Source of the DNA: a virus | Taxonomy: Duplodnaviria > Heunggongvirae > Uroviricota > Caudoviricetes | Strand: one strand, 5' to 3' | DNA: 64,000 bases | IMG/VR virus record: IMGVR_UViG_3300042445_002023 | Shown: in pieces, positions 2 to 19,241 of the stretch | Numbering within the stretch: the stretch's first letter is position 1 | Layout: each line of letters starts with the position of its first letter | Made by a program: the position numbers and the translations under genes | Notes under the pieces: generated by a model | What the model saw: the letters and a program-made list of their open reading frames with translations, nothing else | Databases searched by the model: none | What the model was told of the DNA's origin: nothing

Positions 2-247
2 AAAGAATTTCCAGAATATATTGGTCAATTTGGTGAATATTTTTTAGCAAGTTCTCGTTATGGTAATTGGACAAACAACCCATGTCTTTATAAAAAACAA
101 TTTTATTTAGATACAGTCAAACCATTTGCAGGTGAAGGAATTTCATTAGAAGGAAATATTAGTAAATGGTGGGCACAACAAAATTATAGTGTTGCACACG
201 GTGAAGGATTATTTAAACATAACGATTGGCAAAAATACGGAAAATAA
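2..247 (+). CDS. C-terminal part of a glycosyltransferase-like protein (5' truncated by window edge)
   Basis: Open frame from base 2: KEFPEYIGQFGEYFLASSRYGNWTNNPCLYKK...HNDWQKYGK*. The WTNNP and terminal H motifs resemble GT-A C-termini; sits next to sugar-modifying genes. Confidence 0.45.
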   Translation, partial: KEFPEYIGQFGEYFLASSRYGNWTNNPCLYKKQFYLDTVKPFAGEGISLEGNISKWWAQQNYSVAHGEGLFKHNDWQKYGK

Positions 248-260
248 AAATTATAATAAT

Positions 261-2866: not shown

Positions 2867-2867
2867 T

Positions 2868-3767: not shown

Positions 3768-4497
3768 TGGTATAATTGTTTTAAAACAATTTTTTACAAA
3801 AGAAAGAATTGAAAAATTAAGAGAATCTGCAAAAGATGTTTTTAAAATTCAATTCAAACATTTTGGTTATACCGATTTTGATAGTGAAGATGGATTTAAA
3901 AATTCAATGATTAGATTATTTGAAGAACATTTTGAAATATTTCAAAGTACTGGTAAATTAATCCAATCTGGTTTAGTCGAATTATACAAAATAGTATATG
4001 ATGATATTCTGTTAGATAAGTTAAAAGAGTTGGGAATATCAAATCCATTGGTTTGTACAAGACCCGCTTTATTTTTTAATCATCCTAAATTAGCGAAAGA
4101 ATCACAATATTATAAAACACCAACACATCAAGATTACCCATCAATGTTATCATCATCGGACTCGGTTGTTGTTTGGATTCCATTAATTGATGTTACTCCT
4201 GAAAATGGAGCAGTTGTATTTTATCCAGAAAGTCATAAATTAGGCCCTCTTACTACATCATTGGGAACATCTGGATTTGCAGAAGTTAATATTGATACCG
4301 AAATATATAAACCAATTCAACCATCTTTACAAATTGGTGACATTGCAATATTTTCAACATTACTGGCCCACAATTCAGGTGATATACTAAATGATGATAT
4401 TCGTTGGTCTTGTCATTTTAGATATACAAATTTAAACGATAAAGACTTTATTGAAAGAGGATTTCCTTCACCATACATATATAAATCAATTGCATGA
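3748..4497 (+). CDS. Phytanoyl-CoA dioxygenase (PhyH)-family 2OG-Fe(II) oxygenase
   Basis: TPTHQD, VWIPLIDVTPENGA, GDIAIFSTLLAHNSG...R motifs. Confidence 0.85.
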   Translation: MQQLKDNGIIVLKQFFTKERIEKLRESAKDVFKIQFKHFGYTDFDSEDGFKNSMIRLFEEHFEIFQSTGKLIQSGLVELYKIVYDDILLDKLKELGISNPLVCTRPALFFNHPKLAKESQYYKTPTHQDYPSMLSSSDSVVVWIPLIDVTPENGAVVFYPESHKLGPLTTSLGTSGFAEVNIDTEIYKPIQPSLQIGDIAIFSTLLAHNSGDILNDDIRWSCHFRYTNLNDKDFIERGFPSPYIYKSIA

Positions 4498-5126
4498 TAA
4501 GTTTTAATTTTCAAGATTCAAATTATTTACATTCATTTGAGAATTGTATATCTAATGTTAGAAAGTTTTATCCAAATGAACTAATAGATTTTTATATAGA
4601 TTCAAATTCACCCAAAATAGATGAATATAAAAAAATATGTGATTCATTCAATGTAGAAATGACAATTAGACAAAGAAATCAGGGATATATAAAGAGAACC
4701 GATTCGATGGAAACGAACATCCCAAAAATGTTAGAATCACATTATAGAATATATAATACTTGTAAAAAATCAAATTCGGAATGGGTGATGTTATTGGAAG
4801 ATGATGTTCTAATAAAAAGAAAAATCAAACACTGGCCTTCAAAAGATGTTGGAACTAATAGAGAATATTTTAGAGCAGGTGGTGGAGCAATATTTAAAAG
4901 AGAAACTTTTTTAAAAATTTATGAAAACTTAGGAGAACATGGATTGGAAACAATAATAAGACAAAAACATATTTACTCTTGGGCAGGAGATGCTTTGAAA
5001 GAAAGAATATTCAAAGATGCAGATGTATCAAACGAAAAGTGGATTGAATTGGCTGAACCTGGATACTACGATAATACAGACCATGCAATTTATCACGGAT
5101 ATAAAGATTTACACAAATTAGGATAA
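4494..5126 (+). CDS. Glycosyltransferase (GT-A fold)
   Basis: WVMLLEDDVL DxD-type motif, GGGAIF, terminal HGYK. Confidence 0.65.
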   Translation: MISFNFQDSNYLHSFENCISNVRKFYPNELIDFYIDSNSPKIDEYKKICDSFNVEMTIRQRNQGYIKRTDSMETNIPKMLESHYRIYNTCKKSNSEWVMLLEDDVLIKRKIKHWPSKDVGTNREYFRAGGGAIFKRETFLKIYENLGEHGLETIIRQKHIYSWAGDALKERIFKDADVSNEKWIELAEPGYYDNTDHAIYHGYKDLHKLG

Positions 5127-5127
5127 T

Positions 5128-5991
5128 ATGAAAAAAATGAAAGATGTAGTAATAGGATGTATCACAAATTATACATTTGAAAATATTAAACTATTTGTAA
5201 ACTCAATTGATAGAAGTGGATTCACTGGTCATAAAGTTATGATAGTTTATAATGTTCCATTTTCAACGGTCGATGAATTGAAAAAAAGAGGATGGGATGT
5301 TATTGGATTCAATAGAGATGAAGTAAATCAACGATACACTTATAGAGATAATTTTATAGTAACAGTTGATAGACATTTACATTATTATCTTGCTCTAAAT
5401 CAATTGGCAGAAGAAACATCTGAAGGTTTAAGATATGTATTAGCATTAGACCCAAAAGATGTTGTGTTCCAATATAACCCATCAGAGTGGTTAGAAAAAA
5501 ACTTAGGTGATTATAAAATTAATGCAGGTAGAGAAAGTGTTAAGTATAAGGATGAGGTATGGGGTAGAGGTAATATGATTGAAAGTTTTGGTGAAGTGGT
5601 TTATGATAGATGTAAAGAAAATATAACAGTAAACGCAGGAACAATATCAGGTGATTGGAAAACAATGTCTGAATTATTTTTAAATGTGTATTTAATGTGT
5701 CAAGGAAGTCCATCGGCAACACCTGACCAAGCAGCAGTAAATGTAGCATTATCATTTTCACCATATAAAGAATTGACTAAGTTTACAAATTCCGAAGAGG
5801 GTTGGGCTGCACAATGTGGAACGACGGTTGACCAACGAATGGTTAGTCAGTATGGTGATAACCTATTAGAACCATCACCTATTATGGATGGTGATATTGT
5901 AAAAACAAGTACAGGTATTCCATTTGCAATGGTACATCAATACGATAGAATTCCAGAATGGAATCGAATCATAACAAAAAAATACGAATAA
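5128..5991 (+). CDS. Glycosyltransferase-like protein (GT-A)
   Basis: YVLALDPKDVVFQYNP, VNAGTI, DQAAVN, VHQYDR motifs. Confidence 0.7.
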   Translation: MKKMKDVVIGCITNYTFENIKLFVNSIDRSGFTGHKVMIVYNVPFSTVDELKKRGWDVIGFNRDEVNQRYTYRDNFIVTVDRHLHYYLALNQLAEETSEGLRYVLALDPKDVVFQYNPSEWLEKNLGDYKINAGRESVKYKDEVWGRGNMIESFGEVVYDRCKENITVNAGTISGDWKTMSELFLNVYLMCQGSPSATPDQAAVNVALSFSPYKELTKFTNSEEGWAAQCGTTVDQRMVSQYGDNLLEPSPIMDGDIVKTSTGIPFAMVHQYDRIPEWNRIITKKYE

Positions 5992-6482
5992 TGATTATAG
6001 GTAGGGGGGATATAGCATCTGTCTTAAATGATAGAGAAGGGGCAACATTCTTTGTATCTGGTGTTTCTAATAGTAATGAAACAAGAGAATCTGAATTTAT
6101 GCGTGAAATAGAATTGTTAGATACACAAGATAAAACAAAGTGTTTATTCTATTTTAGTTCCATTTCAGTTGATGATATTGAAAAGGTAGGGAGTAACAAA
6201 TACTTACAACACAAACTAAGAATGGAAACCCTTATCAAATCTAATTTTAAAAATTATAATATTATTAGAATTGGCAATATCACATGGGGAAGTAACCCCA
6301 ATACCTTTATCAATTATATTAAAAATAAAAAGAGTAAAGGTGAATCTGTTCAGATAAAAGATGAATACAAATATATAATAGATAAAGACCAATTGGTTAT
6401 GTTAACTGATAACTTACCATTGGTTGGACAAAATACATTATGTGTATTTGGTCGAATGGCAAAAGTTGCAGAATTAGTATGA
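5991..6482 (+). CDS. Short NAD-dependent epimerase/dehydratase-like protein
   Basis: IIGRGDIA, SGVSNS, YFSS, Y-x3-K (YLQHK), IRIGNI. Lacks the usual C-terminal domain. Confidence 0.65.
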   Translation: MIIGRGDIASVLNDREGATFFVSGVSNSNETRESEFMREIELLDTQDKTKCLFYFSSISVDDIEKVGSNKYLQHKLRMETLIKSNFKNYNIIRIGNITWGSNPNTFINYIKNKKSKGESVQIKDEYKYIIDKDQLVMLTDNLPLVGQNTLCVFGRMAKVAELV

Positions 6483-7372
6483 TAGAAATTGTAATTTGGA
6501 TATCACCAACGGACATTGAAGATTTAGAAAAATCATTAAATCGATTACATATTGGAAAAGATTATCTAACAAAAGAACAATGTGATAATATTAAATTTAA
6601 TGTTGTTATGTGTGTATCTGATGAGATAATTGATTGGGGTAAAAGTGGTGTTACCAAAGAAGAATGCACAGAAAAGTTTTTAGGATTGAAACCATTAACG
6701 GATTGGGCAGGAAAGGTAATATTTGAAACTACAACTACTATAAACGGATGTACCTCAATGCGAAGATTAGCATCGTATTCTGATTCAAACTATTATTTGT
6801 GGTTAGATACTGATATAATCTTTGACCCACAAACCCTAGCACATTCAATCAATTCAATAGATGTAATTGAATATGCAGGATTTACTAAATTTGTATCTAT
6901 CCCAGAAATCGTAAGACAATGGGATTCTACATGGGATTGTTTAGTAAATGAAAGATTTATAAATAAACCAATAGGATATCAGGCAACTAATAATCCACAT
7001 ATTGATGCCACTATTTATGGAGACCCACACTTAGAGGAGGTACATAATAATGTTCATCACCAACCATATATGAAATTTGGTGGTGGGTGGTTCGCATTGA
7101 TATCAAAAGAATTAATGAAGGTTATACCATTTCCAGAAAACTACGGACACTATGGGTTGGATGATACTTACTTAATGTGGGGTGCAAATATATTACAAGA
7201 CCCTACCATAAAACAATTCAAATTAAAAAATACAGTTGTGTGTGAAAATTATTACGATAGAATTACCACTTATAAAGACCAAATACAATTTATAGATAAA
7301 CGTGAGGAGTATAAAAAGTATAACGAAGAATTATTTTATATCGGTTTACAAAATATATTAAATAACAAATGA
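6479..7372 (+). CDS. Glycosyltransferase family 2-like
   Basis: LWLDTDIIF DxD motif, GGGWFALIS, YGHYGLDD. Paralog of the next gene. Confidence 0.75.
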   Translation: MIEIVIWISPTDIEDLEKSLNRLHIGKDYLTKEQCDNIKFNVVMCVSDEIIDWGKSGVTKEECTEKFLGLKPLTDWAGKVIFETTTTINGCTSMRRLASYSDSNYYLWLDTDIIFDPQTLAHSINSIDVIEYAGFTKFVSIPEIVRQWDSTWDCLVNERFINKPIGYQATNNPHIDATIYGDPHLEEVHNNVHHQPYMKFGGGWFALISKELMKVIPFPENYGHYGLDDTYLMWGANILQDPTIKQFKLKNTVVCENYYDRITTYKDQIQFIDKREEYKKYNEELFYIGLQNILNNK

Positions 7373-8262
7373 GGATAGTAATATCAATATTTACTTTACC
7401 ACATGAAATTGATGATTTAGAAACTCTATTAACTCAATTAAGACGTGCATCAAAACACCTAAGTGGAACACATGAATGGGTGTTAGATGTGAGTATGTGT
7501 ATAGCAAATGATATGGTAGATTGGAAACGTTCTGCGTTACCAAAAAGTTATTTTATTGATAAACTACTAAAACTATCAGCACATAGTGATTGGTGTGCAA
7601 AATACTTCACCGCATCTGAAGATATAAAAGGATGTGTATCTCATAGAAAACATACATTAGAAACTCAAGAAACTGCAGATTATTATATTTGGTTAGATAC
7701 TGATATCGTATTTGATGAAAAGACTTTATCTTATATGGAAGAAACCCTAATAGCAATTAATGATATATATCCATATACTATTATAACACCAGAGATTGTT
7801 AGAGTTGGTGATTCCACTTGGGATTGTTTAGTTAATGAAAAGTATTTAACTAAACCATTAAATTATCATCTTACAAATAATCCATATATAGATTGCGGAG
7901 TTAAAGGGGAGGTTACATTAGAATTGGTTAATAATGTAATAGAAAATCAACCAAGATATAAATTTAATGGAGGTTGGTTTACTTGTTTATCCGGTCAATT
8001 ATTACGAAGAATTGGTATACCTGAAACATTTAGTCATTATGGATTTGAAGATACATTTATAATGTGGGCTGCAGAAAAACTGATGACAACTACTGATATG
8101 GAAATCTATCAATTTAAAATAAAAAATTTAGTAATTTGTGAAAATTATAAATACCGAAACAATTCTCATTTATTAAATCATCTTAGTGCTTTTGATAAAC
8201 GAGATGAATTTAAAAAGATATCAGAAGAAAATTTTAATCAAGAATTACAAGACCTCATTTAA
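7369..8262 (+). CDS. Glycosyltransferase family 2-like (tandem paralog)
   Basis: IWLDTDIVF, NGGWFTCLS, FSHYGFED. Shares PEIVRxxDSTWDCLVNE with the upstream gene. Confidence 0.75.
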   Translation: MRIVISIFTLPHEIDDLETLLTQLRRASKHLSGTHEWVLDVSMCIANDMVDWKRSALPKSYFIDKLLKLSAHSDWCAKYFTASEDIKGCVSHRKHTLETQETADYYIWLDTDIVFDEKTLSYMEETLIAINDIYPYTIITPEIVRVGDSTWDCLVNEKYLTKPLNYHLTNNPYIDCGVKGEVTLELVNNVIENQPRYKFNGGWFTCLSGQLLRRIGIPETFSHYGFEDTFIMWAAEKLMTTTDMEIYQFKIKNLVICENYKYRNNSHLLNHLSAFDKRDEFKKISEENFNQELQDLI

Positions 8263-8364
8263 CAATGAGGTTTTTTGTTTTTGAATAATACTTATTAGCA
8301 ACAACATGTTTCATAAATAGGTTATTTTTTTTAGTTTTAGTTTTCAATTAAAAAAAGGTATTAT

Positions 8365-9030
8365 ATGAAACAGGTAATTAAAAGTTTACACATTAATGTA
8401 GATTCGTTAAAAGAAAAAGCATTCACAGCTTTTCTTTCGTTAGTAGGGTTATGGATTATATTCGCCATATCTTTCCAAATGTTCTTTGTTTATTTAGAGT
8501 TATCTGGTAAACATGAACTACAAAGAAACATTGTAAATTGGATTGAATGGAGAATCGATGGTACATTTAAAAATAATCCAGAAAATATATGGTATGATGC
8601 CGAAGACCATATCTTTGTTGAATCCGTAGAAAATCAGGTTAAAATTGGTAAGTTAGCAGGAAATCGTAATCTTGCTTTTGGTGTAAAAAATATCTTAGAA
8701 GAGTTTTTACAAGAAAAGGGATATGGATTATCCGAAGATGCCAAATATAGATTAAAAGTTGAAATCGTTTATTTAGATGTCCTATCAACTAAAACAAACA
8801 TTTCAGTATTTCATAAAAATGAAGATGAAGTTGTCGTTCGCTTAAAAGCAAATCTTTTCAAAGAAGGCAAAAAAGGAAAAGATATTGTAGTAGAAGCGGG
8901 TTCATCTGAAGTCTCAATGTCTACACTAATAGTTGATGAGGGTGGTAAATTCAATCAACAGAGTTTAAGTAATGCTATTAAAAAAGCATGTGAATCATTA
9001 GTAAAACAAATTGAGAAACAACAACAATGA
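8365..9030 (+). CDS. Membrane-anchored protein with CsgG/LptE-like alpha/beta domain
   Basis: N-terminal TM helix. NLAFGVKNILEEFL resembles KVGLGVANITMEYL in the CsgG-like ORF at 18522. C-terminal beta-hairpin and helix. Confidence 0.45.
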   Translation: MKQVIKSLHINVDSLKEKAFTAFLSLVGLWIIFAISFQMFFVYLELSGKHELQRNIVNWIEWRIDGTFKNNPENIWYDAEDHIFVESVENQVKIGKLAGNRNLAFGVKNILEEFLQEKGYGLSEDAKYRLKVEIVYLDVLSTKTNISVFHKNEDEVVVRLKANLFKEGKKGKDIVVEAGSSEVSMSTLIVDEGGKFNQQSLSNAIKKACESLVKQIEKQQQ

Positions 9031-10688
9031 AAAAACTATTAACATTTTTAGGGATATTAATACTATCCACTATCGCATTTACGTCTAATGCACAATTAAA
9101 AATCGGTCAATCAATGACACCAGAAACGGGGTTAAAAGTTGGCGATACTCTGACAGTTAAGTACACTTTAACAAAAGGACAGACCATTGTTAATCCTCGT
9201 TATCTTTGGTTTAGATACCAATTTAACAATAAAGCATTAACATATGTTTCAACTGCATTTAATCAAGGTACATCTGCACAAACATTTTATACCGGTTGGA
9301 CTAACTATAAGTTTACTCCAAATGCAGGAGCAAATGATAATGATATAAATCTTCAGTATGGATTAACCCCGTGGGGATATGCAGTAAATGCAGATTGGAA
9401 TGTAGGACAATTAACAGTTCAAAGAGCAGACCAATCTATTAGTGGATTAATAGCTACTCAAAAATATATTTTAAAAGACCAAAATACTTATTCAAACATA
9501 TTCAAAATAGATTTGGCAACTGGTACTGATACTGCCGGTGGAAACGTTGGAACTATTACTGGTGGTGGATTCTCATCTATAACAGGTGTAACAGGTAATA
9601 CATCTCAATTTAAAGTAAAAGTTTTATATCCACAAGGATATACTATTACTGACCATAGTGTTCAATTGATGAAATTAAAAACAGATGGTAGTGGAGATAT
9701 TGATTGGTCACAACAACCTATTGCACAATTACCATTAGATGCAAGTGGTGAAGCTCTTTTCACAACACAAGTTAAAGTGGGCGATTCAGTAGGTGTATTT
9801 GTTGGAGGTGCCTTTCAAAAGACGTGGATGAATAATATCGTAACTGTATCAGATGCCTACAAAGCATTTTTAGGACATTCACAAACTGATATTAGTGGAA
9901 CTACAAATTATTTTACATTACCTGCATTAGAAAAGAAAGTTGGTAAAGTAACTAATACTCAAACTGCGTTTGGTGAAGCAGATTCTTACGCTTTATTTGC
10001 ACATGTGATGGGACAGAATATGTCAACAACTGCGATGATTCCAACTTCAACTTCAACTTCAATAAAATGGTATAGTGGATTATTAAATCAAAGTTGGTTA
10101 GATGGTGTTGTTAAGAATAAAGTAACCATTGATACTCCTATAAAAGAAGTGTATGCAGTATTCGCATGGGGTGGTGATTTAAACTGGTCACATTCATCAG
10201 ACCCAGCAGTAATTGCATCTAAAATAACTGCAGGACAATTTACTAATTCAGTAAATAATAAAAGTACAAACTCAATTAAATCTATGAGTACTGCACCAAT
10301 GGCTTATCAAACTTTAGCGGTAGAAACAGCAAAATTAGGTATTACATCTACATTAGAAGGTGGAAAAGTGGTATTAACTACAACTTTAACAAAAGCAGAA
10401 TTAGCAGGTTTACAAGTAGTAATGAATTATGATGAATCTAAATTAACTTTGGATAACGTAATATTCGATGCAGGAAGTACAATTACTAACTTCTCAACAC
10501 ATGATAATGGTAGATTAACATTTGGTTCTATTGACCAATTAAAAACTGCAAGAATTAAAGTGGGTACTCCATATAAATTAATATTCACACCAAAAGAAAC
10601 TTTAAGTAATACTGCAGGATTATTCTACTTTGTATTATCGGATGCAGTAGATGCTAAAGGTAATAAAATCAACTTAATAGTTGAATAA
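9027..10688 (+). CDS. Secreted protein with N- and C-terminal cohesin-like domains and a degenerate dockerin-like segment
   Basis: Sec signal ending SNA-Q; KVGDTLTV...YQFNNKALTYVS; IVTVSDAYKAF...EADSYALFAHVMG; GGDLNWSHS; LAGLQVVMNYDESKL. Confidence 0.6.
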   Translation: MKKLLTFLGILILSTIAFTSNAQLKIGQSMTPETGLKVGDTLTVKYTLTKGQTIVNPRYLWFRYQFNNKALTYVSTAFNQGTSAQTFYTGWTNYKFTPNAGANDNDINLQYGLTPWGYAVNADWNVGQLTVQRADQSISGLIATQKYILKDQNTYSNIFKIDLATGTDTAGGNVGTITGGGFSSITGVTGNTSQFKVKVLYPQGYTITDHSVQLMKLKTDGSGDIDWSQQPIAQLPLDASGEALFTTQVKVGDSVGVFVGGAFQKTWMNNIVTVSDAYKAFLGHSQTDISGTTNYFTLPALEKKVGKVTNTQTAFGEADSYALFAHVMGQNMSTTAMIPTSTSTSIKWYSGLLNQSWLDGVVKNKVTIDTPIKEVYAVFAWGGDLNWSHSSDPAVIASKITAGQFTNSVNNKSTNSIKSMSTAPMAYQTLAVETAKLGITSTLEGGKVVLTTTLTKAELAGLQVVMNYDESKLTLDNVIFDAGSTITNFSTHDNGRLTFGSIDQLKTARIKVGTPYKLIFTPKETLSNTAGLFYFVLSDAVDAKGNKINLIVE

Positions 10689-10689
10689 T

Positions 10690-12972
10690 ATGAAACATTT
10701 ATTAGTTACATTATTCTTATTAATATCATTTTTAGGGTTCGGACAGAGTGTATCTGCTCCGGACTCTAAATCGTTTATACCATCCACTGCCGGACAAGAT
10801 GCAAGTGGATTTGTATTGAGTGGGTTTAGTGCTACATCAACTTTGTTAGCATCAATCAGTTTAGTTAATCCACCAACAGGTACAACATTTAACCTAACTA
10901 CAACAACAGGTCTGACCGCAGCAAGTGGATTTACATTAGCAGGTAATAAGACTCGTTTAGTGGTAACGGGAACAATGGCCAATATCAATACTGCATTAGC
11001 ATCCTTAAAAGTAAACACAGGTTCAGTAAGAGGTAATGTTTTATTATCAGTAGCGGCAACAGTCAATCCGGTTGGATATTATTACAATGGTGTAAACGGA
11101 CACTTTTACAGACCAATAACAACCGGAGCAACTTATACGAACGCAAGAGCGGCATCTCTATTAACCACATTCAAAGGACAAACGGGATATTTGGTAACAA
11201 TTACTTCTGCCGATGAAGATGCATTTATTTTCAATAATGTACCACAAGGTAATATTTGGTTTGCATTAACCGATGAAGCAAGTGAAGCTAGATGGACGAT
11301 AGATGCGGGACCTGAAAAAGGAACTCTAATTAAAATAAATAACGGACAACTAAACGGAAATATTCCCGGTCAATACAACAACTGGGCATCTGGTGAACCA
11401 AACGATAGTGGTAATGAAGATTATGCAGTAACTAAATGGGGTGGCGGTTCTCAATGGAACGATTTACCTAATCATTTTAATAATCCTTATGTAATTGAAT
11501 ATGGAACTTGGACTAATCCTGATGATGCAACCTTTACGGAGTTTTATACCAATAGTGTATCACACTCAAATGGTGAAGTTCTATCTGCAAAATTCAATGT
11601 TGATTTTGGTGGTAATGTAGATGAAACTAAATTCACAGCAAAAGGATATACATATACTAACAATACATGGAATGTAGTAAACGGAACTGCTAAACAATTA
11701 AGTGGGTTGGGTAAAGTTGATTTGACAAGTTTGTTAGATACTACTAAAACTGCAAATGGAATTAGAGCACTAACATCTGCTGGACAAACTGAATGGGCAA
11801 TAATAAATCCATATAATGCAACTTTGGGTGGACATCAATTGTTAATAGACGAAAGAGAATTTGATGGAACGGGCGTTTCTCCAAACAATGTAACATCAAT
11901 TAAATTATTTGATATATACGATGGACCAGTTACCATTAGTAGTGTAAGTGGTTTTTGGAAAACATATATAATGCCAGGTGATTTGACATCAAAAATAACA
12001 TCATCAACATTTCAAGCCCAATTAAGATTACAAGATGGTTGGTATGGAACGAAAGCCGAATTTGCATTTTCACCTGCAATGGTATACAAATCACATGGAA
12101 TGGAATTAACTCATTCAAGCCAAACGGAACTAAATACATTATATAGTAATATAGTAGGGGTATCTGATGTATATTTGGCATTTAAAGAATTGGCAGATAA
12201 AGGTATATTGGGAAACCAAAGTGGATTAGGATTAACAAATGGTATTCAGTATTTAAATGCAGATGTGGATGGTAATGGGATATTTAACGAATCGGATACA
12301 TATAAATTATTACAACATTTAACAGGAGTTCAATCACTTTCACAATCTACGGCATTAACTTATTTGATGAAATTATATAACAAATCAGATTACGATGTAA
12401 TAACAACATCAAATTGGGGAACTCAATTTAATTCAACTCGCAACTTAATTCCATTCACATTGAGTAGTTTAAATAATACATACAATATAAATGTAACTTG
12501 GTTAGGTGATGTGAATCTTTCACATTCGGCACAACAAAGTGTAAGTAGTGTTACAACCAATTCGATACGAAGTATGAGTTTAGCAACTAATTCAGTTTCT
12601 AATCAAATAAACGCATATCTGATGGGTGAAAATATTGGCGGTAAGTTAGTAGTAACAATATCAGTTGACCCATTACAACAAGAATTAGTCGGTACTCAAT
12701 TCAATTTAAACTATGATAATACCGCTTTAAAGTTTGAAAAGATAGAATTCACCACAAAGGGGACACCTACCAATTTTGGAACTAATAGAGGTACATATGT
12801 AACATTGGGTTCATTAATAACAGATGGTTCAACTATATTAGATAAAACAACTGAATATAAAATAACATTCACACCATTAATAGGATTAAATGGTACATTG
12901 GGATTAACATCAATATCAAATACTGATGCAGTTAATAAGAATGGAACACAATTAAAAATAAAAATAAATTAA
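10690..12972 (+). CDS. Secreted protein with C-type lectin-like, dockerin/EF-hand-like and C-terminal cohesin-like domains
   Basis: Sec signal; NGHFY...GYLVTITS...WFALTDEASEARW...NWASGEPND...WNDL (CTL); ADVDGNGIFNESDTYKLLQHLTG (dockerin-like); LGDVNLSHS; GTQFNLNYDNTAL. Confidence 0.7.
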   Translation: MKHLLVTLFLLISFLGFGQSVSAPDSKSFIPSTAGQDASGFVLSGFSATSTLLASISLVNPPTGTTFNLTTTTGLTAASGFTLAGNKTRLVVTGTMANINTALASLKVNTGSVRGNVLLSVAATVNPVGYYYNGVNGHFYRPITTGATYTNARAASLLTTFKGQTGYLVTITSADEDAFIFNNVPQGNIWFALTDEASEARWTIDAGPEKGTLIKINNGQLNGNIPGQYNNWASGEPNDSGNEDYAVTKWGGGSQWNDLPNHFNNPYVIEYGTWTNPDDATFTEFYTNSVSHSNGEVLSAKFNVDFGGNVDETKFTAKGYTYTNNTWNVVNGTAKQLSGLGKVDLTSLLDTTKTANGIRALTSAGQTEWAIINPYNATLGGHQLLIDEREFDGTGVSPNNVTSIKLFDIYDGPVTISSVSGFWKTYIMPGDLTSKITSSTFQAQLRLQDGWYGTKAEFAFSPAMVYKSHGMELTHSSQTELNTLYSNIVGVSDVYLAFKELADKGILGNQSGLGLTNGIQYLNADVDGNGIFNESDTYKLLQHLTGVQSLSQSTALTYLMKLYNKSDYDVITTSNWGTQFNSTRNLIPFTLSSLNNTYNINVTWLGDVNLSHSAQQSVSSVTTNSIRSMSLATNSVSNQINAYLMGENIGGKLVVTISVDPLQQELVGTQFNLNYDNTALKFEKIEFTTKGTPTNFGTNRGTYVTLGSLITDGSTILDKTTEYKITFTPLIGLNGTLGLTSISNTDAVNKNGTQLKIKIN

Positions 12973-12977
12973 AAATT

Positions 12978-13325
12978 ATGTTAGATACACCATTTAAGGT
13001 AATTGGAGTTGCTAATTGGCCAGAATATATTAAAACTTTACCAATCGAACAAAGAGATTGGAAAGAAATAGTTCACGATGTAATACGAGAAATGAGAAAC
13101 GATTATCCTGTTGTTACAGATGCATGGCTAAAGGAATTACATCAGAGGGTACTAGATGTAACTACTATTATTATAGACCAAGATAATAATTTCACTCGTA
13201 AGGGTGGGATTTGGATTGGACCAACTTATGATAGAAATAAAAATATTTTAGTTGGGTGGGTATCATTTGTGGGTGATGGAGCGTTTAGATATGAATTTGA
13301 AACCGACACTTTCATAATGGACTGA
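12978..13325 (+). CDS. Hypothetical protein
   Basis: 115 aa ORF abutting its neighbours; no recognised motif. Confidence 0.6.
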   Translation: MLDTPFKVIGVANWPEYIKTLPIEQRDWKEIVHDVIREMRNDYPVVTDAWLKELHQRVLDVTTIIIDQDNNFTRKGGIWIGPTYDRNKNILVGWVSFVGDGAFRYEFETDTFIMD

Positions 13326-14218
13326 TGAAAAAACTAATAACCATATTATTTTTACTTTGTGTAAGTTTTGTTACAAACGCACAAATACAAACACCTGATA
13401 CATTACAACTATCACCAAAAGAATTATTTGGAGAAAGTGATGATTGGAACGATGTGGGTATATTACAATCCTATGTTAATTTTTCAAAAGATGTACTTTC
13501 ATCATCAAACCTTTCGGTAGGTGTAATCGGAAAGCAAGTATCTACTACTCTTAATTTAGGATATCATAAATCATCTATGAATGGGCAATGGGGACATTCA
13601 TTTGCAGCATCGATAAACCCTATATGGAACTATTATGGTGTGGGATATGGTTTAAGTAAAAATACTGAAAAAAGAACTACTACAATACAAACATTCTATT
13701 CTACGGATTTTGATTTCCAAAAAGATATTACATTATCATTCATCGATGTATTCAGAACTAAAAAATGGGGAACATTTGGATATAGTGTAATTGCATCAAA
13801 ATCATTTTGGGGAACATACGAAGGCGAGTGGGAAGGAAAATATACAATTGATGAGAATGGTAATTTTAAAGATTTAATATATCCACAAATGCCGGCATCA
13901 AATGAATTGAGTTATAGGGGTATGGTGATGTACACATATACATTGAAAACAAAAAGAGTAAACATCTCCCCACAAATATTCGCAATGAGTGATGTATATA
14001 AAGTATTCAAAGATGGTACTGAATCGGATTTAGCATATGTTGATGATTTCAATTTGGATTTATATTATGGTACATCTATTGATTGGAAAATAACTAAAAA
14101 ATTCATATTGAATACTAATATTAGATATAACACAACTTGGGATAAATTAAGTGAATCAGTTGGATATAAAAAGAGTAACCCAATCCTATTTATGATAGGA
14201 ACAAACTTTCAATTCTAA
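13325..14218 (+). CDS. Secreted putative outer-membrane beta-barrel protein
   Basis: Sec signal ending TNA-Q, alternating aromatic/hydrophobic strands, C-terminal IGTNFQF typical of a BAM beta-signal. Confidence 0.6.
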   Translation: MKKLITILFLLCVSFVTNAQIQTPDTLQLSPKELFGESDDWNDVGILQSYVNFSKDVLSSSNLSVGVIGKQVSTTLNLGYHKSSMNGQWGHSFAASINPIWNYYGVGYGLSKNTEKRTTTIQTFYSTDFDFQKDITLSFIDVFRTKKWGTFGYSVIASKSFWGTYEGEWEGKYTIDENGNFKDLIYPQMPASNELSYRGMVMYTYTLKTKRVNISPQIFAMSDVYKVFKDGTESDLAYVDDFNLDLYYGTSIDWKITKKFILNTNIRYNTTWDKLSESVGYKKSNPILFMIGTNFQF

Positions 14219-14559
14219 TGAAAAAGATAATATTGATATCATTGATTTTATTGGTAGGGTGTACTAAACCAGAACTACCAACCCCAACTCCAACTGTTGA
14301 AAAAATATTTAGTGTCGGTGAAAGTAAAGTAGTAAACGGACAATCTATTTATTTTGATTTACCATCAGCTGGAACATATACACTAACTTTAATTGATAAA
14401 GAAAGTGGACAAGTAGTTAGTAGAGAAAGGTTTATTGGACAGAATGGAGAAAATGTAAAGAAGATTTATACGAATTCAATACAATCTCAATATTTATATT
14501 TGTTATTAGAAGATGTTACTAAAAAAGAAATAAGTAAAACAACAATAATAACCAAATAA
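14218..14559 (+). CDS. Lipoprotein with T9SS C-terminal-domain-like Ig fold
   Basis: Lipobox LVGC; YFDLPSAGTYTLTLID...GQVV. Confidence 0.55.
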   Translation: MKKIILISLILLVGCTKPELPTPTPTVEKIFSVGESKVVNGQSIYFDLPSAGTYTLTLIDKESGQVVSRERFIGQNGENVKKIYTNSIQSQYLYLLLEDVTKKEISKTTIITK

Positions 14560-14570
14560 GGGAAACCCAC

Positions 14571-14942
14571 ATGAAAAAATTAATTTCAATAATTGCATTA
14601 TCAGTACTATTAACAGGTTGTTATAAAGATGATATTATAGAACCAATAAGACCTCAGGCTACTGATGATTTAAAAATAGCTAATGCGGTTGGTATCAAAT
14701 TACAAACACCATTTGTAACATCGGAAGTTGCTATGAATGTAAAAAGTGATGTAGCACAAACTGTAACTATTAAAATTTTTGATATTGCTAATAGAGTAGT
14801 ATCTAAATCTACAAGTGAAGTAAAGGTAGGTGATAATATTTTAAAAGTATACACAAACGCATTACCATCATCTGGATATAGAATAGGATTATTCGATGCA
14901 AGTGGTAAACAATTAGGAATAACGGATTTTAACAAACTATAA
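14571..14942 (+). CDS. Lipoprotein with T9SS C-terminal-domain-like Ig fold
   Basis: Lipobox LTGC; VTIKIFDIANRVV...LPSSGYRIGL...TDFNKL resembles the type-A CTD pattern. Confidence 0.6.
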   Translation: MKKLISIIALSVLLTGCYKDDIIEPIRPQATDDLKIANAVGIKLQTPFVTSEVAMNVKSDVAQTVTIKIFDIANRVVSKSTSEVKVGDNILKVYTNALPSSGYRIGLFDASGKQLGITDFNKL

Positions 14943-14957
14943 ATAGGAGAATTAACA

Positions 14958-15266
14958 ATGGCAGAAGAACAAGAGGAATCAACAGGAAAATCTTTTAAAG
15001 GTATCCTAATTACAGTTGTGAGTACAATATCATTAGGTATTGCAGCATATGTAACAAAAATTATTACGGGTGAAAAAGATGAAACACCGGTACAACAAGC
15101 AGCACCAGTAATCAACATCAATCAAGCAGCACCTCAACAAGTATCAGGCGGTACTAAAACTATAATCATCAATAAGGGTGGAGATGGTAGTGCTAAACCA
15201 GCACCGGCACCAAAACCAAAGAAAAAAGAAGGTGATGAATTTAAAGAAGAGGCACCTAAATGGTAA
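14958..15266 (+). CDS. Single-TM, Pro/Gln-rich hypothetical protein
   Basis: Hydrophobic ILITVVSTISLGIAAYV followed by QQAAP/PAPAPKPK low-complexity sequence. Confidence 0.6.
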   Translation: MAEEQEESTGKSFKGILITVVSTISLGIAAYVTKIITGEKDETPVQQAAPVININQAAPQQVSGGTKTIIINKGGDGSAKPAPAPKPKKKEGDEFKEEAPKW

Positions 15267-15275
15267 CCATTTAAA

Positions 15276-15437
15276 ATGGAACAAGGATTGGGTTTTATAG
15301 TGGTAATTGTATTGTGTACGATAGCTATGTTTGTATTTAATTCTCCATTGATGTTTTTAACATCTTTTATTGGAGGTAGCAGTTATTTAGTAATAAGAAG
15401 TAGAAAAAAAGGTTGGAAATGGCCACATAGGCCGTAA
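15276..15437 (+). CDS. Small membrane protein (53 aa, not in ORF track)
   Basis: MEQGLGFIVVIVLCTIAMFVFNSPLMFLTSFIGGSSYLVIRSRKKGWKWPHRP*; fills the gap between ORFs. Confidence 0.55.
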   Translation: MEQGLGFIVVIVLCTIAMFVFNSPLMFLTSFIGGSSYLVIRSRKKGWKWPHRP

Positions 15438-15460: not shown

Positions 15461-16084
15461 ATGTCAGAAAATAATCAACCCCCAAGTGGTTTTAAAGATT
15501 TATTAAGTAATATGATGGCCAGAAGATGGTACATCACCGCATTGGTATTGGGTGGATTTATGTTTATTATAGGAGGAATGTTCTTCGCTATATTAAATAA
15601 ATCAGCAATAGAAGGTGAATGGAAAGAACTTCTATTATTGTTATTAGGAGCGTTCATTGGTTCTTATGGTAAAATCATTGACTATTGGTTTAGTGATACT
15701 GATAAAGATAAAATGTTGGTTCAGAAAATGGATGAGGAAGATGGTACGGCAATGAGTAACACTGCTGATATGCCGGTAACTCCGCCAAACAACACACCAA
15801 TCATACCAGAGGCGTTTCAAACCGCTATTGAAAACTCAAAAATAGAAAAGGTAAACGATACGTTTGAACAAGTACCAACTACACAACCAAGAACAGGTAT
15901 TGAAGTGGATGAAGATGGCGATGGTGTAATGGATGGTATAGATTTTGATGGAGATGGTAAAATCGATATGTACTTTGCACATAGACAATGTGAGCACGTA
16001 TGGGGAGATTTAGATGGTGATGGTGAAGAAGAATGTTTAAAATGTGGCAAAATCAGAGATGAAGATGCCGAACAAGTAGGATAA
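15461..16084 (+). CDS. Two-TM holin-like protein with C-terminal DxDxDG Ca-binding loops and possible Zn site
   Basis: Two TM helices ending GKIIDYWFS; DEDGDG, DFDGDG, DLDGDG; CEH...CLKCG. Confidence 0.5.
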   Translation: MSENNQPPSGFKDLLSNMMARRWYITALVLGGFMFIIGGMFFAILNKSAIEGEWKELLLLLLGAFIGSYGKIIDYWFSDTDKDKMLVQKMDEEDGTAMSNTADMPVTPPNNTPIIPEAFQTAIENSKIEKVNDTFEQVPTTQPRTGIEVDEDGDGVMDGIDFDGDGKIDMYFAHRQCEHVWGDLDGDGEEECLKCGKIRDEDAEQVG

Positions 16085-16131: not shown

Positions 16132-16386
16132 ATGGCTAAATTTACTGATATTTTCAAAGATTCAAATGATTTGAATGAGAAAACAATCGTAGGGTTTGCA
16201 TCATTTATTGTAATGACAGCATTTGCAGTTACTGATTTGGTAACTGGGTATTTAGGAAAAGAATTACTTGTAAATGAATTTATTTACAATTCATTTATGT
16301 ACATAACATTAGGTGCTTTTGGTATCGCTGAAGTGGGTAAAATCTTTAATAAAAAAGAAGAACCAAAAGAAGAAGAATTGGGATAA
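16132..16386 (+). CDS. Two-TM small membrane protein (holin-like)
   Basis: Two hydrophobic segments and a charged C-terminus KKEEPKEEELG. Confidence 0.55.
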   Translation: MAKFTDIFKDSNDLNEKTIVGFASFIVMTAFAVTDLVTGYLGKELLVNEFIYNSFMYITLGAFGIAEVGKIFNKKEEPKEEELG

Positions 16387-16390
16387 TTTA

Positions 16391-16418
16391 AAAAGGGAGA
16401 TGATTTCTCCCTTTTTTT
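16391..16418 (+). terminator. Intrinsic terminator
   Basis: AAAAGGGAGA-TGATT-TCTCCCTTTT followed by a T-run. Confidence 0.8.
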
Positions 16419-16444: not shown

Positions 16445-17518
16445 ATGGCAAAAGAACAAATCCCTGCAGGTTGGCAAGGTGGGTTTCCATCTGAAAATCA
16501 AAAGCAAATGTTATATCCTACTACGGATTTATCTTCATTACCTATGTTGGGTAATATGGATAACATTAATTTACTACAAAGACAATGGGGTGTTAAATGG
16601 CCAATGTTTAGTTGGAATACCCTAAATGGGGAAAAAGACCCAAAACGTTGTTATGTACAATTTGCTCCTTATATTTCTAGAATAGGATATACTAATGAAG
16701 GTAGAATTTATTCAATAATCTGTCCTCAGCAGGGGATGTGGGTTGGTGATGAAATTTGTATCAATGTTGAAGTAACAGTTACTGGACAAAAAGGGTGGGT
16801 AAATGAAACTACAAAAGAAATAGCCGCAGATATGATGGTTGAGGGAAAAATTTGGCTAACACCAAGTGAACATCAAGGTAGTCATTTAAAAGCAATTTGG
16901 CCATTATTAAAATATAGTGCTCATAAATACCCTATTGACAAAGAAAACGCAATTCGTGTTTCAACCCATTTACCAGGAAATCCTAAACAACCTGTATTTC
17001 AACTTGGAAAAGGTTTATCTTCAAGATTTAAAAATCCACAATTTGCTATAAAAGAAGAAGCATTTACAACAGGACATATCAATGTAGAAATAGGAGGAAT
17101 AGTTCCTACAAACGATGCCAAACTAGATAAGTTCAATCAATATTTTTTAGATATTTTTAACTTAGCTACTGGTAATATGCTACAAAAGGGTAATGTATTA
17201 TCGTGGAACTTATTTTTTGATTCACCTGAATTAGTTTCAGTTTCTGAATGGCAAAATCACGCTGATTATTGGCGTACTTCTATAAACGCTCATCATGGTT
17301 CTCCAGATGGTGAGGGAACAAGTCCAAGATATTTTGATGGAACATATTTTGACACTAAAAATTTCGCTATTAAAGAGGTTATTAAAGAAATTTTAAATCA
17401 CGTAGTAAAAAACCCCACATTGAGAAAGGGTTTAATATTATTTGTAGAATATTGTCCTAAAACAATTTTGGATATATTTTTAAAAAAAAGTAAACAACCT
17501 AAAACAAATACACAATAA
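16445..17518 (+). CDS. Hypothetical protein (357 aa)
   Basis: Long ORF; start moved to ATG 16445, after the terminator and TATTTATA motif. Confidence 0.7.
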   Translation: MAKEQIPAGWQGGFPSENQKQMLYPTTDLSSLPMLGNMDNINLLQRQWGVKWPMFSWNTLNGEKDPKRCYVQFAPYISRIGYTNEGRIYSIICPQQGMWVGDEICINVEVTVTGQKGWVNETTKEIAADMMVEGKIWLTPSEHQGSHLKAIWPLLKYSAHKYPIDKENAIRVSTHLPGNPKQPVFQLGKGLSSRFKNPQFAIKEEAFTTGHINVEIGGIVPTNDAKLDKFNQYFLDIFNLATGNMLQKGNVLSWNLFFDSPELVSVSEWQNHADYWRTSINAHHGSPDGEGTSPRYFDGTYFDTKNFAIKEVIKEILNHVVKNPTLRKGLILFVEYCPKTILDIFLKKSKQPKTNTQ

Positions 17519-17521
17519 ACT

Positions 17522-17764
17522 ATGGAAGACGAATTAATAGGAATCATTAAATTATTCGGTGGAAACTTTATTCCACGAGGATATATGGAATGTAATGGAC
17601 AATTACTACCAATAAATCAATATCAAGCGGTGTATTCAATACTTGGTAATACATATGGTGGTAATTATCAATCAATGACATTTGCTCTACCTAAATTAAC
17701 CCCTCCCAATGAGAATATGAAATATATTATGTGTGTGGAAGGTGTATACCCATCAAGACAATAA
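17522..17764 (+). CDS. Phage tail collar domain protein
   Basis: IGIIKLFGGNFIPRGYMECNGQLLPINQYQAVYSILGNTYGG...FALPKL. Confidence 0.85.
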   Translation: MEDELIGIIKLFGGNFIPRGYMECNGQLLPINQYQAVYSILGNTYGGNYQSMTFALPKLTPPNENMKYIMCVEGVYPSRQ

Positions 17765-17768
17765 TACT

Positions 17769-18512
17769 ATGACAAAAGAAGAAATATTATACAATGTTGG
17801 TTTAACTGAAAAAGTTTATTCCGAACAAAAAGACATCGATTTTAAATCATTGGGTTTAAAATTAGTTAAGTGGATTGAGGATAAAAAATCCGATACTCAG
17901 GGATTCGTTGCAACAAAAGATAAATCAATTTATATTGTTTGGAGAGGCAGTTCATCTAAAAAGGATTTCCAAAATGATGCATCAATTGATAAAGTTCCTT
18001 TCATTGAAGAAGGTGAAAAAGTTCATATTGGATTCAAATCATCGTGGGAAGCAGTTAAAGATAAAACATATCAGGCGTTAGATGTTGCACTTAAAAACTT
18101 AGGTCAAGAACATTCAATAGATAATATTATTGTGTGTGGTCATAGTTTGGGTGCTGCAGTTTCAACCTTATCTGCATATGAGATTTATTCGATTTACAAA
18201 TCAAATAAAATTATATGCTGTACCATTGGTAGTCCAAGAGTTGGAAATAAAATATTTAAACAAAACTTTGATAAATCACCGATAGAATCCCTAAGAATAG
18301 TTCATAATTTAGATGTTGTTACTCGTGCACCAAATATTGGATATCATCATGTTAATACCGAATTAAGGATTGATGATGAGGGTAATGTTAAAAAATGGAT
18401 GGTTGATTGGAAAAGAGTAGGTGATTACCTTAAAGCAGTTTTCACTGGTCAGACAGTTAAAGACCATATGACAAGTAATTATATAAGTGCATTAAATAAA
18501 TGGAATCCATAA
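17769..18512 (+). CDS. Lipase class 3 (alpha/beta hydrolase)
   Basis: WRGSSS, VHIGF, GHSLGAA, GSPRVGN, VHNLDVV, DH. Confidence 0.9.
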   Translation: MTKEEILYNVGLTEKVYSEQKDIDFKSLGLKLVKWIEDKKSDTQGFVATKDKSIYIVWRGSSSKKDFQNDASIDKVPFIEEGEKVHIGFKSSWEAVKDKTYQALDVALKNLGQEHSIDNIIVCGHSLGAAVSTLSAYEIYSIYKSNKIICCTIGSPRVGNKIFKQNFDKSPIESLRIVHNLDVVTRAPNIGYHHVNTELRIDDEGNVKKWMVDWKRVGDYLKAVFTGQTVKDHMTSNYISALNKWNP

Positions 18513-18521
18513 AAAAAATAT

Positions 18522-19241
18522 ATGAAACAATTATTAGTATTTTTGCTTGGTGTTTTACTAAGCAATGTTGCCATTGCCCAAACTGTGGGAACAACGAAGA
18601 CCGAAAATTACAAAGCAAGTTTCGAAACAAAAGTAGACATTAGTCAATTCTTAGATTATGAAGGTAAACAAATCCCAATACAGATTCTCAAATGTGGTAT
18701 TGGTGATGAAGTTTATGAGCAGTATCCTGAACTCAAAGAAAAGAAAGTGGGTTTGGGTGTGGCTAATATCACGATGGAATATTTGGAGAATCTTAACAGG
18801 TTTACGTTTACGGAGGATAAGACAGAAATTAAGAACCGCATGGTAAAGCAGTTTCAAGCTTCTCAATCTGGTATTTCGCAAGATAAGTTAGATGGCAGAG
18901 GAAAAATTAGATTAGCACATTATTTTGTAGAAATTGAAGTGTATGATTTTTCAGTATCCGAAGATGAGACAGTAAATTTAAGTAATGGTGTTAAGAATAA
19001 AGTAGTAACTCGTTTGGGTTTACAAGTTCGTTTCACAAATGCAGAGACAGGAGAAATTATAGCAGCAAGTGGATTGGGTGAAGCGGTTACAACAAGAGAA
19101 TTATCACTCCTTTCAGATGCAACTGTGGATGAGGTTAAATTCAACCAATCAACCATTGGAACATCTACAAAGAAAGCATTGGATATAGCATGTGCAAGAA
19201 TATTAGGTAGAATGATTAAAAAGGGTGTGTTCGAAAAATAA
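18522..19241 (+). CDS. CsgG/HfaB-family secreted protein
   Basis: Sec signal; RFTFTED...; LQVRFTNAETGEIIAASG pattern of CsgG-like proteins. Confidence 0.7.
   Translation: MKQLLVFLLGVLLSNVAIAQTVGTTKTENYKASFETKVDISQFLDYEGKQIPIQILKCGIGDEVYEQYPELKEKKVGLGVANITMEYLENLNRFTFTEDKTEIKNRMVKQFQASQSGISQDKLDGRGKIRLAHYFVEIEVYDFSVSEDETVNLSNGVKNKVVTRLGLQVRFTNAETGEIIAASGLGEAVTTRELSLLSDATVDEVKFNQSTIGTSTKKALDIACARILGRMIKKGVFEK

Follow-up and report, generated by a model that had tools for sequence, protein, structure and literature searches.

Positions 8365-15266 of a 64,000-nucleotide stretch of phage DNA (IMG/VR record IMGVR_UViG_3300042445_002023, Caudoviricetes; the whole stretch is called the window below) contain a compact run of genes which may re-equip the envelope of the infected cell. 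As judged from the sequences, a Sec signal, a lipobox or a membrane anchor is conserved in nearly every product of this block. Two large proteins, B and C, are predicted to contain a common module (a dockerin-like part, a linker and a cohesin) attached to different heads. The head of C carries a C-type lectin and, by sequence comparison, is common to the phage and to giant cell-surface adhesins of the host phylum, Bacteroidota, that are exported by way of type IX secretion (T9SS). The facts fit an envelope-targeted module and argue strongly against a role in the virion. We regard it as an evenly balanced question whether the operon loads the host envelope with phage-made proteins during infection and presents the lectin-type head at the surface of the infected cell. 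Compared with the first-pass annotation of this DNA, two things are new: the kinship of the C head with giant T9SS adhesins, and the presence of an equivalent block in the cultured Flavobacterium phage vB_FspM_immuto (immuto below).

Gene order and conservation

The block comprises eight open reading frames (ORFs), named A to H in order of position, which all lie on the plus strand and, in the ORF listing, overlap or are separated by few bases. The tight run of genes described in the first-pass annotation is real and present in full. The plus strand also carries the other genes of the unit and the hairpins given below, and it holds nearly all genes of the window, which is AT-rich (G+C about 30%).

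The run is not a chance arrangement, because relatives of C are encoded on 145 IMG/VR viral contigs (the longest of 334 kb) and the genes A, B, C, F, G and the more distant gene O are collinear in all 57 related loci that have enough flanking DNA, with order and strand identical in all. A wider set, used for some of the counts below, includes 80 loci. The remaining genes are less regular: J occurs in 55 of the 57 loci, H in 47, E in 30, I in 9 and K in 25, the latter being a lower bound for a small protein. The co-conservation that had been expected of a functional module therefore holds for the core.

Within its lineage, very large freshwater phages of Bacteroidota, the block belongs to the core. 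Near-identical DNA was found in lake and freshwater metagenomes of at least 18 studies. One relative is a 324-kb genome, 97% complete by CheckV, with a large terminase that has no counterpart within the 64-kb window. The window contains an endolysin gene (33259-34095, PHROG E 5e-72) and genes encoding a DNA methylase, a CobS/MoxR-type ATPase, a tail-collar-domain protein and a class 3 lipase. The endolysin and the tail-collar protein, together with the terminase of the relative, confirm the phage origin of this DNA. A blastn search of the block against 50,697 phage records produced no match. The Moraphages (PMC12619734) may belong to the same lineage, which is not established.

One related contig (JBIPMA010000251.1, 3,368 bp) was binned in a lake metagenome-assembled genome (MAG) of Schleiferiaceae and is 73-74% identical to B and C of the block. 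Most likely this is phage DNA which was either binned wrongly or binned together with its host; it thus gives a weak hint at a host from the Flavobacteriales.

Boundaries of the unit

The unit is probably longer than 8365-15266 and includes the genes I, J and K, ending at 16386. It is preceded by a terminator-like hairpin at 8249-8274, which closes the upstream glycosyltransferase operon, and followed by another one at 16390-16416; both consist of an 11-pair stem and a subsequent T run, and they are the probable 5' and 3' boundaries. The host-type promoter motif TAnnTTTG was not found in the spacer 8275-8364, and its enrichment across the window is marginal.

Two metatranscriptome libraries contain short contigs, mostly from relatives at 80-95% identity, which touch B, C, E and H to K. 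One contig of 160 nt coincides with an internal stretch of C, with one base difference. These matches do not prove transcription, since they are contigs and such libraries can contain DNA. No RNA run was listed as containing the whole stretch.

Export signals

N-terminal lysine or arginine residues followed by a hydrophobic core are present in every unique homologue of B (65/65), C (62/62), E (29/29) and O (56/56). A lipobox was found in 50 of 59 homologues of F and in 56 of 58 homologues of G, and its cysteine is invariant in the 48 aligned sequences of F and G taken together. Protein A starts with a long N-terminal membrane helix, and H, J and K have membrane helices. The earlier statement that nearly all genes have Sec or lipoprotein signals thus holds for B, C, E, F and G, where the signals are conserved. 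It has to be amended for D, which has none, and for A, which is anchored by a transmembrane helix instead of a lipobox.

Proteins B and C

Protein C (760 aa, 10690-12972) is predicted to start with a Sec signal and an adhesin-type head, which includes a C-type lectin; then follow a beta domain that is variable, the dockerin-like repeat and finally the cohesin. Three parts of its AlphaFold2 model are good, namely the N-domain, the middle beta domain and the C-terminal domain; overall the model is moderate (pLDDT 70). In aligned homologues the head (residues 1-320) is the most conserved region and the middle domain (320-480) the most variable one.

The C-terminal domain (residues 635-760, 12592-12969) has the cohesin fold; cohesins are nine-stranded beta jelly-rolls of about 130-150 residues. 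Foldseek aligns it with the cohesin 2jh2 (E 2.7e-7, probability 1.0) and with dozens of further cohesins. VIA-align, an aligner independent of Foldseek, matches it to 5nrk (Z 14.4, root-mean-square deviation 2.3 A over 125 residues), and its top 15 rows are all cohesins. The cohesin fold suggested for this protein in the first-pass annotation is thus recovered by two methods.

The assignment of the C-type lectin, also made there, is upheld by the following evidence. A profile of the C family matches CEL-I in PDB (E 3e-5). Residues 127-274 (11068-11511) align by VIA-align with Z 9.7-9.0, at 22-25% identity to langerin, DC-SIGNR and codakine, this fold match resting on a region of the model with low pLDDT. 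Finally, the calcium- and sugar-site motifs of the EPN/WND type (E236 P237 N238, E243, W256 N257 D258) are invariant in 25 homologues of C.

Between the variable domain and the cohesin, residues 519-546 (12244-12327) form a single copy of a candidate dockerin-type repeat, a calcium loop plus a helix. The 12-residue loop D-V-D-G-N-G-x-F-N-E-x-D and the following helix (residues 525-546) are retained, with exchanges between D and N, in 25 of 25 homologues. The repeat matches all four tandem repeats of PDB 8x39 (sequence E-value 1.2e-5), the matches being individually weak.

Relatives of the C head were found in host-type proteins. A 1,952-aa protein encoded on a 304-kb scaffold of a Bacteroidota MAG shares, over its residues 190-457, 61% identity with residues 22-286 of C (10753-11547; BLASTP E 1e-102), and a 1,921-aa protein from a Sphingobacteriaceae MAG shares 50% in the corresponding region. 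Both host proteins contain Ig, cadherin and lectin domains and a T9SS sorting domain of the CHU_C type (type B), and both genes are followed by a PorP/SprF gene. In the search of predicted viral structures (BFVD), C aligned best with a phage protein whose name refers to a T9SS sorting domain (E 2e-13). No longer proteins with the dockerin-cohesin module were scored, which is weak evidence of their absence. The action of a diversity-generating retroelement on the lectin was also considered; no template-like repeat was found, the lectin being the most conserved part of the protein, and this idea was rejected.

Protein B (553 aa, 9027-10688) starts with a Sec signal. Its beta-rich head is specific to phages, and its C-terminal module has a degenerate dockerin-like and a cohesin-like part. 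Its residues 262-547 align with residues 484-762 of C (hhalign probability 99.5%, E 4e-23, 31% identity). The alignment shows that the module is common to both proteins and the heads are distinct, and it establishes the paralogy of the two large proteins claimed earlier. The Pfam Cohesin model does not match B, and the head of B has neither a bacterial homologue nor a match in the sequence-profile search of PDB. The family of B has more than 3,326 members, every one named 'hypothetical protein'. A complex prediction for C 478-760 with B 262-553 scored 0.01 and gave no verdict.

Proteins A and O

Protein A (221 aa, 8365-9030) consists of the N-terminal membrane helix and a periplasmic alpha/beta domain (residues about 79-221). 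In the model the fold of this domain is the one seen in CsgG, LptE, PelC and PqiC, accessory proteins of the envelope. At probability 1.0, Foldseek aligns it with DUF330/PqiC, LptE and PelC (TM 0.4-0.57). VIA-align scores CsgG (6lqh) at Z 11.1, LptE at Z 10.0-9.5, PelC and PqiC at Z 9.0, and TraT at Z 8.8. Most of these fold matches are ring-forming accessory lipoproteins of the envelope; LptE instead plugs LptD. The Pfam family PF03923 (YajG-type lipoprotein) matches 22 of 24 homologues of A at E<=0.01 (best 2.4e-6), and a sequence-profile search of the A family against PDB gave no match. Thus the CsgG/LptE-like nature of the first protein, as proposed in the first-pass annotation, is retained at the level of the fold, where the two aligners agree. 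The mode of anchoring differs: a lipobox is absent from all 43 homologues considered, and the long membrane helix stands in its place. In two divergent loci the homologues of A have a shorter N-terminus resembling a signal peptide instead of the long helix, which fits a periplasmic domain with interchangeable anchors.

Protein O (239 aa, 18522-19241) has a Sec signal; variable cassettes stand between it and the unit. By language-model features, the named Atlas clusters closest to O are all of the CsgG/HfaB/LpoB type (0.93-0.94, 173-176 shared features). It has no match in Pfam and no sequence match in PDB. O is probably CsgG/HfaB-like and, as a lead, probably the CsgG-like partner of the unit, with the same type of fold as A. 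Direct comparison of A and O (hhalign probability 29%, 27 residues) reveals only a short C-terminal motif in common.

Lipoproteins F and G

The two lipoproteins F (113 aa, 14218-14559) and G (123 aa, 14571-14942) are paralogues with 25-33% identity. Each has an invariant cysteine and, by prediction, a beta-sandwich resembling Ig-like domains and the C-terminal domains (CTDs) of T9SS cargo. The joint family has 48 members: matches were found to DUF3244 in 24 of them, to the T9SS type A sorting domain in 20 (E<=0.1, best E 3.4e-4) and to FlgD_ig in 9. The presence of two lipoproteins with a CTD/Ig-like domain was thus correctly anticipated: the lipobox is conserved, and the CTD-like matches, seen in 20 of 48 members, are sub-threshold. 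In the complete 324-kb relative, the only two matches of the sorting-domain model genome-wide are the homologues of F and G. The sandwich makes up nearly the whole mature lipoprotein, so that there is no cargo part at whose C-terminus it would stand. The sequence-profile search against PDB gave no match for F or G. In PHROGs both match Rz-like spanin and Cor families, by their signal peptides only (E 0.003-0.08). For the block as a whole PHROGs gave nothing beyond such signal-peptide matches, and NCBIfam nothing useful.

The lipidated cysteine is followed by the pattern C-x-K-(D/E)2 in 33 of 58 homologues of G (CYKDD in the window) and in 3 of 58 homologues of F. This pattern is the optimal signal for lipoprotein export in Bacteroidota, as defined in Capnocytophaga (PMC5080379). 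Because of this export motif, G is likely to be exposed at the cell surface.

Protein E

Protein E (297 aa, 13325-14218) is a probable outer-membrane beta-barrel with a Sec signal. Its C-terminal end G-T-N-F-x-F/L, an aromatic beta-signal of the kind that outer-membrane barrels combine with a Sec signal, is retained in relatives down to 25% identity. The beta-amphipathic moment exceeds that of shuffled sequences (z 3.3), and the nearest named Atlas clusters are autotransporter and porin types (0.93-0.94). The family is small, with only 29 clusters among 1.84 billion representatives. Among 11 members no Pfam family was found at E<=1, and no match was found in the sequence-profile search of PDB. 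The host gene order suggested that E could be a PorP/SprF protein. This candidate was rejected, as PF11751 was not found in the 11 members at E<=1 and BLASTP against true PorP gave E 0.13.

E is an optional cassette. In the 30 of 57 loci where it is present, it is always inserted exactly between C and F. Its median identity is 89%, compared with 68-76% for the flanking genes; since E is more conserved than its neighbours, it has probably spread recently between phage genomes. Thus the outer-membrane barrel ending in phenylalanine proposed in the first-pass annotation has the signal and the conserved end of such a protein, and the barrel is probable, whereas it is not a part of the core.

An equivalent block in a cultured phage

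An equivalent block, gp012-gp019, was found in Flavobacterium phage vB_FspM_immuto (genus Immutovirus, 160 kb), whose host is Flavobacterium sp. LMO8. Like the block of the window, it is a same-strand group of signal-peptide genes with lectin, cohesin, H-like, O and A homologues. The first gene, gp012, encodes a nuclease with a signal peptide. It is followed by gp013, a lectin protein with 37% identity to the lectin of C and with a dockerin-like D-V-N-N-D loop, and by gp014, another protein with a signal peptide. The 243-aa cohesin protein gp015 has a C-terminus with the typical pattern of a sorting domain, which aligns weakly with F and G. The Pro-rich membrane protein gp016 has the layout of H, including the tryptophan at the end; gp017 is the homologue of O (56% identity, E 9e-84), gp018 ends in a barrel-type phenylalanine, and gp019 is the homologue of A (29% identity, E 1.5e-9). 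In the immuto record the annotation of these genes is limited to the domain names 'lectin' and 'cohesin', and no functional study of the block was found in the literature.

The two blocks differ in several respects. In immuto the cohesin is separate and carries a T9SS-type C-terminal domain, instead of being fused behind a dockerin-like part; there are no stand-alone lipoproteins of the F/G type, the gene order is different, a secreted nuclease is added, and the phage is smaller. From these predictions the immuto parts seem to be arranged as a classical scaffold, with a T9SS-tagged cohesin and separate dockerin-like lectins, whereas in the lineage of the window the dockerin-like part and the cohesin seem to be fused in B and C and the sorting-domain-like fold occurs alone, as lipoproteins. 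One flank of the immuto block contains replication-type genes (SSB, RecA-like recombinase, DnaB, ribonucleotide reductase) and the other one small hypothetical, thioredoxin-domain and QueC-like genes. No virion genes are annotated around the block in the stretch examined.

Comparison with known systems

Phage-encoded modules associated with the envelope or with secretion are already known as a class. A literature search found no published phage module for export of cohesin, dockerin and lectin proteins. The first-pass annotation, which knew of no phage system like this one, is right in this narrow sense. Against its wider sense, CsgG/CsgF clusters, T9SS cargo and outer-membrane proteins of huge phages have all been published, and immuto carries the block itself.

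The closest parallel is the curli-type cluster (CsgG/CsgF, type VIII secretion) of the pelagimyophages and of the OM43 phage Melnitz (PMC7029224, PMC9004378). These are lytic aquatic myophages with a conserved operon that, like the block of the window, combines a CsgG-type envelope protein with uncharacterised exported proteins. In pelagimyophages the function of the cluster was left unassigned and aggregation ('sibling capture') was proposed (PMC7029224); avoidance of superinfection has been proposed for such clusters too. However, these phages of Proteobacteria have true CsgG/CsgF homologues, whereas A and O of the window match only by fold or by language-model features. The window also lacks CsgF, and its candidate cargo is of the lectin/cohesin rather than the curlin-like type.

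The best Foldseek matches of the C cohesin come from the glycoside-hydrolase complexes of Clostridium perfringens (2jh2, 2o4e, 2vo8) and from the Archaeoglobus cohesin 2xdh. Such non-cellulosomal cohesin-dockerin pairs join carbohydrate-active or carbohydrate-binding proteins outside cellulose degradation. Their dockerins have two calcium repeats and proven binding, whereas the window has a single repeat (C) or a degenerate one (B), which are predicted and stand in the same chain as the cohesin. The setting in the window, viral and Gram-negative, is also different.

The C head is 50-61% identical to the N-proximal region of two proteins of about 1,950 aa that belong to the giant T9SS adhesins of the SprB type (CHU_C, paired with PorP/SprF). 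Unlike these adhesins, C has no Ig, cadherin or CHU_C parts, and E has no similarity to PorP/SprF. T9SS-tagged cargo has been described in a cryoconite phage, 'Cryophage' (PMC7468147), and 1,603 outer-membrane barrels of huge phages were counted in a 2026 preprint (bioRxiv 10.64898/2026.10.24.761521). These are precedents for proteins that phages of Bacteroidota and huge phages make for the surface or the outer membrane of the host, in many cases from variable cassettes. Cohesins, dockerins, lectins, lipoproteins and LptE/CsgG-like proteins are not mentioned in these two papers, nor is the T9SS in the preprint. The module of the window is core to its lineage and not just flexible.

Some phages alter the availability of receptors by means of small phage-made outer-membrane lipoproteins, such as Llp of T5 and Cor of phi80 and T1. 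These superinfection-exclusion lipoproteins are the products of single genes, whereas the window has a multi-gene module. The points of contact are the PHROG matches of F and G to Cor, confined to the signal peptides, and TraT among the fold matches of A (Z 8.8).

Possible function

If the operon does load the host envelope, the inner membrane would hold A, H, J and K, and the outer membrane F and G as well as E in those phages that have it. B and C would be kept in or on the outer membrane by contacts of the cohesin/dockerin type, by the lipoproteins F and G, or by both. The sugar-binding head would thereby be presented on the surface of the infected cell, and the purpose would most likely be to change what this cell binds or exposes. 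The infected cells might be stuck to host cells or particles; alternatively, masked receptors might protect against other phages and keep progeny from being lost on debris. Display of the lectin at the surface is plausible and is the most economical interpretation, because the head is akin to a part of adhesins, G has the surface-export motif, and the cohesin of immuto is T9SS-tagged.

A number of results weigh against surface display by such a set of proteins. Several family models score below their cut-offs: on C, Pfam Cohesin (PF00963) reaches 20.6 bits instead of 24.1 and Lectin_C (PF00059) 20.8 instead of 22.6; PF03923 reaches 24.4 bits instead of 25 on A of the window. All scores in the F/G family (DUF3244, the sorting domain Por_Secre_tail, FlgD_ig) are under the curated cut-offs; G scores 13.5 bits against 27 for the type A sorting domain of Pfam (PF18962) and 15.4 against 23 for that of NCBIfam (TIGR04183). 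The model of A is of low confidence (AlphaFold2, pLDDT 64). The lectin region of C (residues 127-274) contains no cysteines, unlike canonical C-type lectin domains. Dockerins have two tandem calcium repeats. In C only one canonical loop was found, the upstream segment being a helix without a loop, and Pfam Dockerin_1 (PF00404) does not match C at E<=1; in B the calcium loop of the dockerin-like segment is degenerate, with no canonical loop. Thus 'dockerin-like' is the right wording, and the label 'dockerin' of the first-pass annotation applies to C at the level of the motif and less well to B. Finally, no T9SS sorting domain was found in B and C, and no match to CHU_C or PorP/SprF (PF11751) was found in the complete 324-kb relative.

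Some of these observations would be natural in a periplasmic or trans-envelope complex that never reaches the surface, with the EPN-type lectin binding peptidoglycan or lipid-linked glycans. Here A, O, H, J, K, F and G would tie the complex to both membranes, and its role would be to stabilise or re-wire the envelope under infection by a huge phage, or to time lysis. We consider this a serious rival, if a fairly unlikely one. It agrees with the export of B and C by Sec signals only, with no T9SS tag, with the structure of A as an inner-membrane anchor plus a periplasmic domain, and with the rarity of the surface-export motif in F (3/58). Lectins of the EPN type can bind glycans containing N-acetylglucosamine, and the RegIII lectins bind peptidoglycan. 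On the other hand, the head is common to cell-surface T9SS adhesins, the surface-export motif is usual in G, and the T9SS-type C-terminal domain of the immuto cohesin points outward. A part of the operon could also be lysis machinery, with H, F, G and ORF I acting as spanins and holin and the large proteins engaged otherwise. The layout would fit, as H would be a type II membrane protein whose extended tail lies in the periplasm and I is a small two-helix ORF, and PHROG matches to Rz-like spanins and Cor do exist (E 0.003-0.08). However, these matches stop at the signal peptide, the endolysin of the window (33259-34095) lies 18 kb downstream, the beta-sandwich of F and G, about 95 residues long, is unlike the short proline-rich o-spanins, and I occurs in only 9 of 57 loci. 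H with F or G does not form a typical two-component spanin: there is no adjacent endolysin, and the tail of H is of low complexity, rich in Pro, Ala and Gln. This minor rival is thus improbable.

Lectin and Ig-like heads are common on phage fibres, and B and C could in principle be fibres or decorations of the virion that recognise the host, their N-terminal hydrophobic segments being unused for export. Low-probability alignments of whole length to minor structural and tail-fibre proteins in BFVD, and a tail-collar-domain gene close by at 17522, could be taken in favour of this. Nevertheless it is very improbable. The signals are canonical in all homologues of B and C (65/65 and 62/62), and the neighbouring genes encode lipoboxes and membrane anchors; no tail or fibre family of PHROG matches. 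Structurally, the viral protein that matches best is the one whose name refers to a T9SS sorting domain, and in the stretch examined around the immuto block none of the annotated genes is a virion gene. The head is the most conserved part of C, whereas receptor-binding tips are the most variable.

A bolder version of surface display is a phage-built sugar-binding coat, in which cohesin/dockerin-type modules would join the lectin-headed proteins, lipoproteins consisting of free-standing T9SS sorting domains would tether them, and rings of the CsgG fold would be the passage through the outer membrane. Such a coat would capture neighbouring cells or particles, or hide the receptor. We think it unlikely in this complete form. 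If true, it would raise transmission in dilute lake water and would represent virus-encoded surface display made from split parts of host secretion cargo.

In the usual view the host surface is left untouched by phages up to lysis, and single exclusion proteins are the exception. In this case nearly all products of a core operon in an abundant lineage of lake phages appear to be envelope-bound, including a calcium-type lectin close to host adhesins. If the infected cell is indeed re-dressed in this way, this bears on the spread of huge phages in dilute water, on the exclusion of competitors and on the traffic of domains between host T9SS adhesins and viruses. The interest of the system lies in its abundance, its core position in the lineage, the adhesin-like parts common with the host phylum, and its accessibility in culture: since a cultured Flavobacterium phage-host pair has an equivalent block, it can be tested now.

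Small genes and neighbouring cassettes

ORF D (115 aa, 12978-13325) is an insertion unique to the window, with no family match. It was found in none of the 80 related loci and has no export signal. Some loci have a further 260-320 nt or about 750 nt between C and E, in the position of D. Protein H (102 aa, 14958-15266) has an acidic N-terminus, one membrane helix and a Pro/Ala/Gln-rich tail ending in Trp. ORF I (53 aa, 15276-15437) has two hydrophobic helices and is variable. In protein J (207 aa, 15461-16084), two membrane helices precede an acidic tail, which contains three consecutive D-x-D-G-D-G motifs, similar to calcium loops, and a cluster of three cysteines. Such loops were found only in J and C among all ORFs of the 64-kb window. 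By the positive-inside rule the tail of J would be cytoplasmic, which is a poor fit with calcium binding. Protein K (84 aa, 16132-16386) is a small membrane protein and the last gene before the terminator.

Directly upstream of the block, positions 2-8262 contain an operon of sugar-modification and glycosyltransferase genes. The two genes nearest A (6440-8262) occur in only 4 of the 80 related loci, and thus the 3' end of this operon is a swappable cassette. One candidate idea is that the glycan made by the operon may be the ligand of the C lectin, or may decorate the exported proteins. The O-glycosylation motif of Bacteroidota, D-(S/T)-(A/I/L/V/M/T), is not enriched in any product of the block.

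The region between K and O (16445-18512) is also a variable cassette. Besides a 357-aa ORF with no family match, it encodes an 80-aa protein with a phage tail-collar domain (PF07484, E 2e-20) and a class 3 lipase (PF01764, E 7e-28). Each of the three occurs in only 1-6 of the 80 related loci. Downstream of O, at 20046-23725, there is a full-length 826-aa protein of the TonB-dependent-receptor type (CarboxypepD_reg, Plug and OMP_b-brl_3 domains), followed by a 400-aa ORF. This cassette occurs in 5 of the 57 loci, at 77-90% identity and in varying positions relative to O. Farther downstream, a DNA methyltransferase (N6_N4_Mtase) encoded at 44382-45710 has a C-terminal DNA-binding domain of the I-TevI type (PF20987, E 1e-5, just under the cut-off).

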